DNA of 64,000 nt, taken from NCBI GenBank assembly GCA_964581815.1, contig CAZORE010000010.1, forward strand, positions 34,385-98,384. Reading direction: 5' to 3'. The notes below the pieces were generated by a model. That model did no database searches. It saw only the letters and a list, made by a program, of their open reading frames with translations, and had not been told where the DNA came from. This document shows positions 10,757 to 12,109 of the stretch, piece by piece. The translations under genes and the position numbers were made by a program. The DNA is from an uncultured Streptosporangiaceae bacterium. Its GTDB lineage: Bacteria > Actinomycetota > Actinomycetes > Streptosporangiales > Streptosporangiaceae. Numbering within the stretch: the stretch's first letter is position 1; every line of letters starts with the position of its first letter.

Positions 10757-12109
10757 GTGAGCGTTACCGAGTTGCCGCAGCGCGGCGACGAATTCGAGCG
10801 GATGCCGCCGCACGACGTCGCGGCCGAGCAGTGCGTGCTGGGCGGCATGCTGCTGTCGAAGGACGCGATCTCCGACGTCATCGAGGTGATCAGGCCCACC
10901 GATCACTACCGGCCGGCCCATCAGCTCGTGCACGAGGCCATCCTCGACCTGTATGCGCGCGGCGAGCCTGCCGACCCGATCACTGTCGCCAACGAGCTCA
11001 CCAGGCGAGGCGAGCTCACCCGCATCGGCGGCGCTCCCTACCTGCACACGCTCATCGCTTCGGTACCCACCGCGGCCAACGCCGGGTACTACGCGCGGAT
11101 CGTCAGGGAGCGGGCCATCCTGCGGCGGCTGGTGGAGGCTGGCACGCGGATCGTCCAGTTCGGCTACGCCGGCGACGGTGACGCCGATGAGCTCGTCGAC
11201 CGGGCGCAGGCCGAGGTCTACGCGGTCACCGACCGCCGCATCGCGGAGGACTACCACCCGCTGTCCGAGATCATGCCCGCCGCTCTCGAGGAGATCGAGG
11301 CGATCGGCGCGCACGGCGGCGGCATCAGCGGCGTCCCCACGGGCTTCGCCGACCTGGACGCCCTCACCAACGGCCTGCACGCCGGCCAGATGGTCGTCAT
11401 CGCGGCCCGCCCCGCCGTCGGCAAGAGCGCACTCGCACTCGACTTCGCGCGGTCGGCGACGATCAGGCACGGCCTCCCCACCGTGGTCTTCTCGCTGGAG
11501 ATGGGGCGGAACGAGATCACGATGCGGCTGCTGTCGGCCGAGGCGCGGGTGCCGATGCACGTGATGCGGACCGGCCAGATGAGCGACGATGACTGGGGCC
11601 GGCTCGCCAAGCGAATGAGCGAGGTCGCGGACGCGCCGCTGTTCATCGACGACTCGCCGAACATGTCGCTCATGGAGATCAGGGCCAAGTGCCGACGGCT
11701 CAAGCAGCGCCACGACCTCAAGCTCGTCATCATCGACTACCTGCAGCTGATGTCCTCGCCCAAGCGGACCGAGAGCCGACAGCAGGAGGTCTCCGAGATG
11801 TCCCGGTCGCTCAAGCTGCTGGCCAAGGAGCTTGAGGTGCCCGTGGTGGCGCTCTCCCAGCTGAACCGGGGGCCCGAGCAGCGCCAGGACAAAAAGCCGA
11901 TGTTGTCCGATTTGCGCGAATCGGGTTCTATCGAACAAGATGCGGATGTTGTCATACTTTTGCATAGAGAAGATGCATATGAGCGGGAATCGCCCCGGGC
12001 CGGTGAAGCGGACCTGATCGTCGCCAAGCACAGGAACGGGCCGACCGCGACGGTCACGGTGGCGTTCCAGGGGCACTACAGCCGCTTCGTCGACATGGCC
12101 CCAGGCTGA
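10757..12109 (+). CDS. dnaB: Replicative DNA helicase, intein-free allele
   Basis: [25 protein letters not shown] (Walker A), FSLEM, [44 protein letters not shown] RBS before GTG 10757. Confidence 0.97.
   Translation: [450 protein letters not shown]

Follow-up and report, generated by a model that had tools for sequence, protein, structure and literature searches.

An A/T-rich patch of synonymous codons covers an empty intein insertion site in dnaB of a Streptosporangiaceae bacterium and recurs at the dnaB intein sites of other actinomycetes

Results

The dnaB Gene and Its A/T-Rich Patch

We identified a gene for the replicative DNA helicase, dnaB, at 10757..12109 on the forward strand of a 64,000-nucleotide stretch of DNA (hereafter the window) from contig CAZORE010000010.1 of an uncultured Streptosporangiaceae bacterium. 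The gene has a GTG start, 450 codons plus a stop codon, and an overall G+C content at third codon positions (GC3) of 0.90. Its product contains the Pfam domains DnaB [PF00772 (3.8e-34)] and DnaB_C [PF03796 (1.9e-108)], which place it among the DnaB helicases, and proteins 96-98% identical to it carry the source name replicative DNA helicase. The P-loop GKS is encoded by codons 222-224 and the peptide of helicase motif H4 by codons 387-397.

The codons over motif H4 depart sharply from the codon usage of the rest of the gene. In the core of this patch (11891..11980, forward strand, codons 379-408), 18/30 codons end in A or T (A/T3), compared with 1/30 in the preceding and 3/30 in the following 30 codons. 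Rare codons in the patch are TTG (three times), ATA for isoleucine (once) and AGA for arginine (once). These counts, codons and coordinates had been given in a first-pass annotation of the window and were reproduced exactly. The GC content of the patch is 42% and that of each flank 71%. Against the 26/420 A/T3 codons in the remainder of dnaB, the enrichment in the patch is highly significant (Fisher p = 6.9e-13), and leucine is encoded by TTG in 3/4 cases within the patch and in 1/40 cases elsewhere in the gene (p = 0.001). The patch has a 3' tail (11981..12007, forward strand) in which GAA at 11987, GGT at 12002 and GAA at 12005 are also A/T-ending, and the densest 30-codon window of the gene, with 19 A/T3 codons, is located at 11918-12007. 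The protein itself is unchanged, as the first-pass annotation had noted for the motif: the 30-residue peptide of the patch is identical in the related loci L007 and L242 and in nine protein relatives.

To place this dip among others, the 36 reading frames of the 64-kb window that are high in GC3 were surveyed in approximately 10,000 internal 30-codon windows. The dnaB patch was the strongest A/T3 cluster in the interior of any real gene; the next highest value, 18, belongs to a wrong-frame overlap, and values of 12-14 come from gene ends or Gly/Pro repeats. Rival dips were dismissed as out-of-frame overlaps, as 5' untranslated parts of stop-to-stop frames or as Gly/Pro repeats, and similar dips were not common in conserved genes within the 64-kb window. 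Secondary A/T3 peaks without relation to inteins were observed in a long open reading frame (ORF) at 2052-5510, which encodes collagen-like repeats with mostly GGT and GCT codons. The same kind of patch, with partly the same codons, is present in the independent assemblies of L242, L001, L005, L002 and L161-L163, which indicates that the patch did not arise by misassembly of this contig.

Intein Insertion Points of dnaB

Novikova et al. (PMC4760082) assign the DnaB intein sites "a" and "c" to motif H4 and site "b" to the P-loop. The first-pass annotation had named RESG/S (the slash marks the junction) in motif H4 as an insertion site of DnaB inteins. In the window this insertion point is located at 11924..11929 on the forward strand, with the junction at 11926/11927 between Gly390 (GGT) and Ser391 (TCT), inside the A/T-rich patch. 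The P-loop insertion point GK/S (site "b") is located at 11423..11428 on the same strand, between Lys223 (AAG) and Ser224 (AGC). Both sites are empty: the encoded protein of 450 amino acids lacks an intein and is colinear with its intein-free relatives, and both junctions are continuous. The P-loop site of the window is not recoded, having 2/30 A/T3 codons, both GCA.

To find related alleles, reference genomes (one per species) were scanned with the DnaB protein and the best 80 loci were taken. In L007 (94% extein identity to the window), L024 and L051 an intein is located exactly between Gly390 and Ser391, with the junctions RESG/C...HN/SIEQD, which bears out the earlier assignment of the site. 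These inteins are 379-427 amino acids long and contain the Pfam domains Intein_splicing and LAGLIDADG_3; the extein identity of the H4-intein-bearing relatives to the window is 80-94%. By this comparison, the RESG/S junction of the window corresponds to the empty homing site of an H4-motif intein that bears an endonuclease in related alleles. A search of the reference genomes with the L024 intein as query gave 499 relatives, and the best 80 of these 499 were all inserted in dnaB. Hosts among these best 80 include Streptosporangiaceae, Nonomuraea, Actinomadura, Nocardiopsis, Pseudonocardiales, Nocardioides and others. In all, 83 occupied H4 alleles were aligned, consisting of L007, L024, L051 and 80 further loci. 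The intein is nearly constant in length (425-427 amino acids), and both LAGLIDADG motifs are kept. The ratio of nonsynonymous to synonymous substitution rates (dN/dS) is 0.19 for the endonuclease domain and 0.17 for the splicing domain, and this similarity indicates that the endonuclease is under purifying selection. With a GC3 of 0.75-0.84, the H4 intein is not low in GC.

The H4 intein of L007 (locus positions 4171-5307) has 379 instead of 426 amino acids and is approximately 47 residues short between its LAGLIDADG motifs, so that its endonuclease is possibly decayed. Roughly half of the intein-bearing alleles L081-L160 use GAT for Asp395, five codons past the H4 junction, compared with only 8/55 unrelated empty alleles; this GAT is possibly carried along with the intein or favoured by its endonuclease.

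A protein search revealed a second intein, located in the P-loop and 151-315 amino acids long, in many close relatives with an extein identity of at least 85-90%. The junctions of this intein are GK/ALALDTPL...THN/SALALD in P0015, P0016, P0023, P0028, P0030, P0119 and L242. The last of these (CAVTIR010000016.1) is the closest nucleotide relative of the window, with 89% identity in dnaB; it has a P-loop intein of 519 amino acids with LAGLIDADG motifs, and its H4 site is empty and recoded almost as in the window. The L242 intein (locus positions 2249-3805) is unusually large and contains, besides both LAGLIDADG motifs, an extra Cys-rich CxxC...CxxC insert. The P-loop inteins of P0015, P0016, P0023 and others, including L242, open with ALALD, which repeats extein residues +2 to +6 (S/ALALD), and the start of the L242 intein (GCA CTC GCG CTC GAC) is closer to the extein of the window (GCA CTC GCA CTC GAC) than to the extein of L242 itself. 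An origin of the empty P-loop site of the window by deletion between the ALALD of an intein and that of the extein was considered and rejected, because such a deletion would take out the essential Ser224, which is present in the window.

Recurrence of A/T-Rich Patches at Both Intein Sites

The densest 20-codon A/T3 window was determined for each of 226 actinobacterial dnaB alleles, with Bonferroni correction. A significant cluster was found in 49/226 alleles. Of these 49 clusters, 39 span one of the two insertion points (P-loop or H4) and 5 others are within a few codons of one, whereas random placement would put approximately 9% at the insertion points. In a second sample, independent of the first and centred on a Nocardia query, all clusters with a Bonferroni p < 0.05 were located at the P-loop or H4 site.

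The H4 patch is shared, with partly other codons, by intein-free relatives of the window. The number of A/T3 codons in the 30-codon H4 patch is 16 in L002, 15 in L001, 14 in L003 and L162, 13 in L163, 12 in L167 and L174, and 11 in L005, L006 and L161; it is 3 in L004 and L166 and 1 in L164. Patches at the P-loop were found in Cellulomonas, Cellulosimicrobium, Promicromonospora, Myceligenerans, Kineosporiaceae, Pseudonocardiales, Nocardia and Micromonosporaceae, and also in L001 and L005 among the window's own relatives. Neither patch is present in L019, L023, L030, L004 and L164. The pooled profile of recoded empty alleles is lopsided toward the C-extein side; around the P-loop junction it covers codons -6 to +11 and around the H4 junction codons -7 to +17-23, all limits being approximate.

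The codons within the patches evolve differently from those in the remainder of the gene. Synonymous codon differences between close relatives are 2-3 times commoner at both sites than in the remaining gene. In the H4 patch they amount to 83% between the window and L007 (28% in the rest of the gene) and to 48% between the window and L001 (27% in the rest). At the same time, A/T3 states of the window patch are kept in 11/18 cases in L001, 12/16 in L002 and 14/18 in L242, compared with 0/21, 2/20 and 6/23, respectively, elsewhere in dnaB. The A/T3 states of the patch are not kept in L007 (1/18), L004 and L164, which have the G/C-rich version. The window patch looks like a mosaic, its 5' half being like that of L002 and L006 and its 3' half like that of L001, L005 and L242. 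Changes are not limited to wobble positions. In recoded empty alleles leucine is encoded by TTR in 29% of cases in the H4 patch and in 24% in the P-loop patch, compared with 3-4% elsewhere in those genes, and arginine at the P-loop by AGR in 25% of cases versus 5% elsewhere. Over 90 nucleotides, 29 positions of the window deviate from the occupied-flank consensus, whereas the maximum among occupied alleles is 24; 10 of the 29 differences are at non-wobble positions, partly where the amino acid of the consensus itself differs. Whatever its cause, the recurrence of the patches shows that, in several groups of actinomycetes, synonymous sites of the dnaB H4 and P-loop motifs do not evolve neutrally.

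Empty and Occupied Alleles

At the P-loop, a significant A/T3 cluster is present in 26/183 empty alleles but in only 1/43 occupied alleles. The median A/T3 fraction at the P-loop is 0.23 in empty and 0.10 in occupied alleles (Mann-Whitney p = 2e-5; H4-intein-bearing loci only). Empty alleles are more recoded the closer their nearest occupied relative is (Spearman p = 0.004 for H4 and 0.0003 for the P-loop). These samples are the best-80 lists of each scan; the alleles share ancestry, and the statistics are given without phylogenetic correction. The most extreme patch values (15-18/30) are all found in empty alleles, and the closest occupied relative, L007, has G/C-rich H4 flanks with 6/30 A/T3 codons.

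Patches and inteins also go together at the level of clades. In Streptomyces, 33 loci and 120 protein clusters yielded no DnaB intein, and neither site is patched in any of the 33 alleles, the maximum being 5/30. The dip is therefore not a feature of all relatives, and it is absent in many other alleles as well; its presence in all relatives regardless of intein exposure was one of the outcomes that, according to the first-pass annotation, would have refuted its proposal. In Cellulomonadaceae, 5/120 of the closest protein clusters are intein-sized, and the four that were inspected all have a P-loop intein; the sampled empty alleles of this family are recoded at the P-loop only. L158, a Cellulomonas metagenome-assembled genome, has an H4 intein.

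Neighbourhood of dnaB

An element of approximately 8.7 kb (12118-20799) begins 9 nucleotides past the dnaB stop codon and is bounded by imperfect 28-nucleotide terminal inverted repeats, of which the left one, TGTAGGTTCTCATCACAGTTGGCCAACG, is located at 12118-12145 and its partner, 86% complementary, at 20772-20799. It contains an ORF with a weak helix-turn-helix (12250-13176), a TniQ-like ORF on the reverse strand (13293-14831), an rve_3 integrase fragment (14800-15048) and cargo genes for an arginase family protein, an alpha/beta hydrolase and a TetR regulator. It looks like a decayed Tn7/Tn5053-type transposon and is missing from every relative sampled. The homology between the window and its relatives stops at the dnaB stop codon. 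A link between patch and transposon, which had been entertained earlier, is refuted: none of the 242 loci contains the terminal repeat TGTAGGTTCTCATC, yet many of them have the patch. A perfect 19-nucleotide palindrome, GTCTCATCGATCTGGCCAA / TTGGCCAGATCGATGAGAC, was observed near the left end of the element (12145-12193), and an 18-nucleotide copy of its second arm, TTGGCCAGATCGATGAGA, near the right end (20698-20715). The palindrome and the copy look like putative sub-terminal transposase-binding repeats; Rfam gave only spurious weak miRNA matches for them.

Upstream of dnaB, the interval between rplI and dnaB (9936-10609) contains 8 of the 11 DnaA-box-like 9-mers of the whole window (TTGTCCACA, at most one mismatch). 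They form two groups, at 9936-10007 and at 10405-10609, and their presence suggests possible binding of DnaA upstream of dnaB.

Discussion

Proposed Recoding of an Empty Homing Site

We have high confidence that the A/T-rich patch is tied to the intein insertion site. What produced it is less certain. The reading that we favour, and to which we would give somewhat less than an even chance, is synonymous recoding of an empty intein homing site under pressure from the intein endonuclease. The basis for this reading is the position of the patch on the insertion point, its recurrence at both sites, the excess of patches in empty P-loop alleles, the maintenance of A/T states, the switching of codons at non-wobble positions and the absence of patches where inteins are absent. 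Among the three explanations offered in the first-pass annotation (escape from a homing endonuclease, a co-conversion scar after intein loss and import from a low-GC donor), escape fits best, although it is unproven.

The proposed causal mechanism is plausible. The organism of the window belongs to an actinomycete clade in which a LAGLIDADG intein of 425-427 amino acids commonly occupies RESG/S of DnaB. Since the protein motif at H4 is fixed, the DNA can leave the sequence recognised by the endonuclease by synonymous change only. With third positions that are 90-94% G/C in this genome, nearly every synonymous change would end in A/T, and six-fold degenerate codons (Leu CTN to TTG, Arg CGN to AGA, Ser AGC/TCG to TCT) would let non-wobble bases change too. 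Recoded alleles might then be cut less, or recombine less with intein-bearing donors, and would remain intein-free and persist within the exposed lineage. The patch would in that case represent a homing site shifted as far from its usual G/C-rich sequence as the genetic code permits. We infer that the recoded sequence resists cleavage or homing and that this resistance is the property under selection. A broader claim would be that hosts, or selection among alleles, systematically "immunise" empty dnaB intein sites by dense synonymous recoding, and that this has happened repeatedly, at both sites, in several families and genera, with the result maintained for long periods. We regard this generalization as possible but would sooner doubt it than assert it.

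Several observations weigh against endonuclease-driven recoding. The flanks of occupied H4 sites are themselves mildly A/T3-rich (median 0.17 against a background of approximately 0.06; median excess 0.10), and significant H4 clusters occur in 5/83 occupied versus 7/143 empty alleles; given this weak difference, the contrast between occupied and empty alleles is clear at the P-loop only. Shared ancestry and the use of best-80 samples mean that the p-values overstate the evidence. In the central 45 nucleotides the window differs from the occupied consensus at 12 positions, and occupied alleles differ at up to 14. The P-loop site of the window is empty and unrecoded even though its closest relative, L242, bears the 519-amino-acid, endonuclease-bearing intein at that site. 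The patch spans approximately -36 to +80 nucleotides, which is more than the 28-bp target of a related LAGLIDADG endonuclease (bioRxiv 10.64898/2026.08.13.744650). Moreover, PI-SceI and PI-PspI cut targets that are altered at every wobble position (Barzel et al. 2011, PMC3159444), and wobble recoding by itself need not give resistance. Resistance of the present site to cleavage is a prediction from sequence comparison.

The A/T codons could instead be a scar, co-converted with an intein or gained during occupancy and left behind after precise loss or replacement of the intein. The mild A/T3 enrichment of occupied H4 flanks, some of which reach 10-12/30, would fit this explanation, as would the occurrence of the rare states CAT AGA GAA and GCA of the window patch beside the inteins of L126 and L105 and the nesting of the window's clade among lineages in which the H4 intein is the rule. 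At the P-loop, however, occupied flanks are G/C-rich and empty sites A/T-rich, while the H4 flanks exclude a scar only in part. The extreme patches are confined to empty alleles, the nearest occupied relative (L007) has G/C-rich flanks, and the H4 intein itself, by its GC3, is not low in GC. A scar would be expected to decay neutrally, yet the patch states persist where the other A/T3 codons of the gene have turned over, as seen in L001 and L002. The scar offered in the first-pass annotation thus fits poorly, and we consider it unlikely. Another origin without selection for resistance is local mutagenesis, in which repeated cutting, resection and repair raise G/C to A/T mutation and selection on the protein leaves only the synonymous changes. 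Such a process would account for the centring of the patch on the insertion point, for the 2-3 times higher synonymous divergence at both sites and for the uniform direction of the changes from G/C to A/T, including those at first positions of Leu and Arg codons. The edges of the patches are sharp, at approximately -6 to +11 codons at the P-loop, and resection tracts are usually far longer. In addition, the A/T3 states are stable between diverged relatives instead of being scattered, and the GC3 of the patch (0.40) falls below the GC content of those neighbouring intergenic stretches that are poorest in GC (51-63%). We consider this origin very unlikely.

The patch might also have a function independent of inteins, if rare or A/T-rich codons at conserved ATPase motifs slow translation, keep the mRNA open or bind a nucleoid protein; patches and intein sites would then overlap only because inteins also pick the most conserved motifs. 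No motifs of the protein are more conserved than those at the two sites, the A/T3 states seem to be kept by selection, and the patch contains truly rare codons (TTG, ATA, AGA). The distribution of patches is sporadic, however, with none in 33/33 Streptomyces alleles or in the five other loci that lack both patches; their location follows which intein circulates in a clade, and they are rarer at occupied P-loop sites. No promoter-like or terminator-like site was found in 11700-12400, the predicted RNA folding of the patch is unremarkable (z = -1.46) and no Rfam match was found in the patch. We give an intein-independent function little credence. Import of a short tract by recombination from a phage, a plasmid or a distant bacterium is in our judgement hardly credible. 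The codon usage of the patch is like that of low-GC organisms, and a BLAST search of 11861-12010 against phages and plasmids gave Firmicutes phage helicase genes as the best phage matches. These are just 72-80% identical over 60-114 nucleotides, however, and the plasmid matches are ordinary actinobacterial dnaB genes of approximately 72% identity. With no phage or plasmid match above approximately 80%, and with a peptide that is the same as in L007, L242 and the nine protein relatives, the low-GC donor proposed in the first-pass annotation is unsupported. Relatives also share the patch with other synonymous choices in a mosaic pattern, and among reference genomes exact matches to the 3' haplotype of the patch occurred only in two close relatives, on the contig of L001 and in L242.

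Relation to Known Systems

The closest described case to the dnaB pattern is that of the WHO homing elements of Torulaspora yeasts and their arms race with the target gene FBA1, in which a LAGLIDADG endonuclease has a 28-bp target in an essential gene that is under diversifying selection and in which FBA1 alleles differ in measured cleavage sensitivity (Osborne, Monnin and Wolfe, bioRxiv 10.64898/2026.08.13.744650). In both systems such an endonuclease is aimed at an essential conserved gene, and the fast evolution of the FBA1 recognition region, inferred to be selected for evasion of cleavage, has a parallel in the fast divergence of the dnaB sites. The WHO/FBA1 system differs in that resistance was shown experimentally, that amino acid changes are included and that the element replaces part of the gene. 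The dnaB case concerns a bacterial intein, purely synonymous changes that are all toward A/T, a patch of 90-120 nucleotides and a putative resistance, and it involves two sites in one gene and several actinomycete groups.

The homing-cycle model, which is reportedly due to Goddard and Burt, treats empty sites as passively susceptible. In the clade of the window the stages of the cycle coexist, as empty alleles, alleles occupied by intact inteins, alleles occupied by decayed inteins (P-loop inteins of 138-519 amino acids) and mini-inteins; unlike in the model, many of the empty sites look actively or selectively altered. The cycle, consisting of invasion, fixation, decay of the endonuclease, loss and re-invasion, has been discussed for PRP8 and VMA inteins (PMC1508164). 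Hosts can vary only the synonymous positions of such targets, and endonuclease and target co-evolve there (PMC3159444); that paper cites Kurokawa 2005 and Scalley-Kim 2007 on the tolerance of endonucleases for synonymous target variation. Barzel et al. show the side of the endonuclease, whose wobble tolerance predicts that wobble recoding is ineffective (PMC3159444), whereas the dnaB pattern may show the side of the host, with dense recoding and codon-family switches at non-wobble bases. The dnaB alleles also resemble a situation met in biotechnology. In engineered gene drives, synonymous recoding of the target in an essential gene blocks the nuclease and leaves the protein unchanged. Those resistant alleles are engineered or derived from end joining and are eukaryotic, while the dnaB pattern is natural, bacterial and old enough for diverged lineages to share it. 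No description of recoded empty intein sites was found in the open-access full-text literature searched, and the wider recoding pattern is apparently undescribed so far; as coverage of the literature is incomplete, this novelty is provisional.

Inteins are usually taken as near-neutral passengers and their empty targets as passive. If endonuclease-driven recoding is true, inteins would exert a cost or a drive sufficient to shape the sequence of the host, and the synonymous sites of a core replication gene would record a conflict with a selfish element. The homing cycle would gain a resistant-empty state, which would help to explain the long coexistence of empty and occupied alleles. Local departures in codon usage within conserved genes would, where strong, be signatures of past or present homing elements and would offer a practical route to their detection. 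The natural target variants described here, both wobble-only variants and those with codon-family switches, are suited to measuring the specificity of intein endonucleases.

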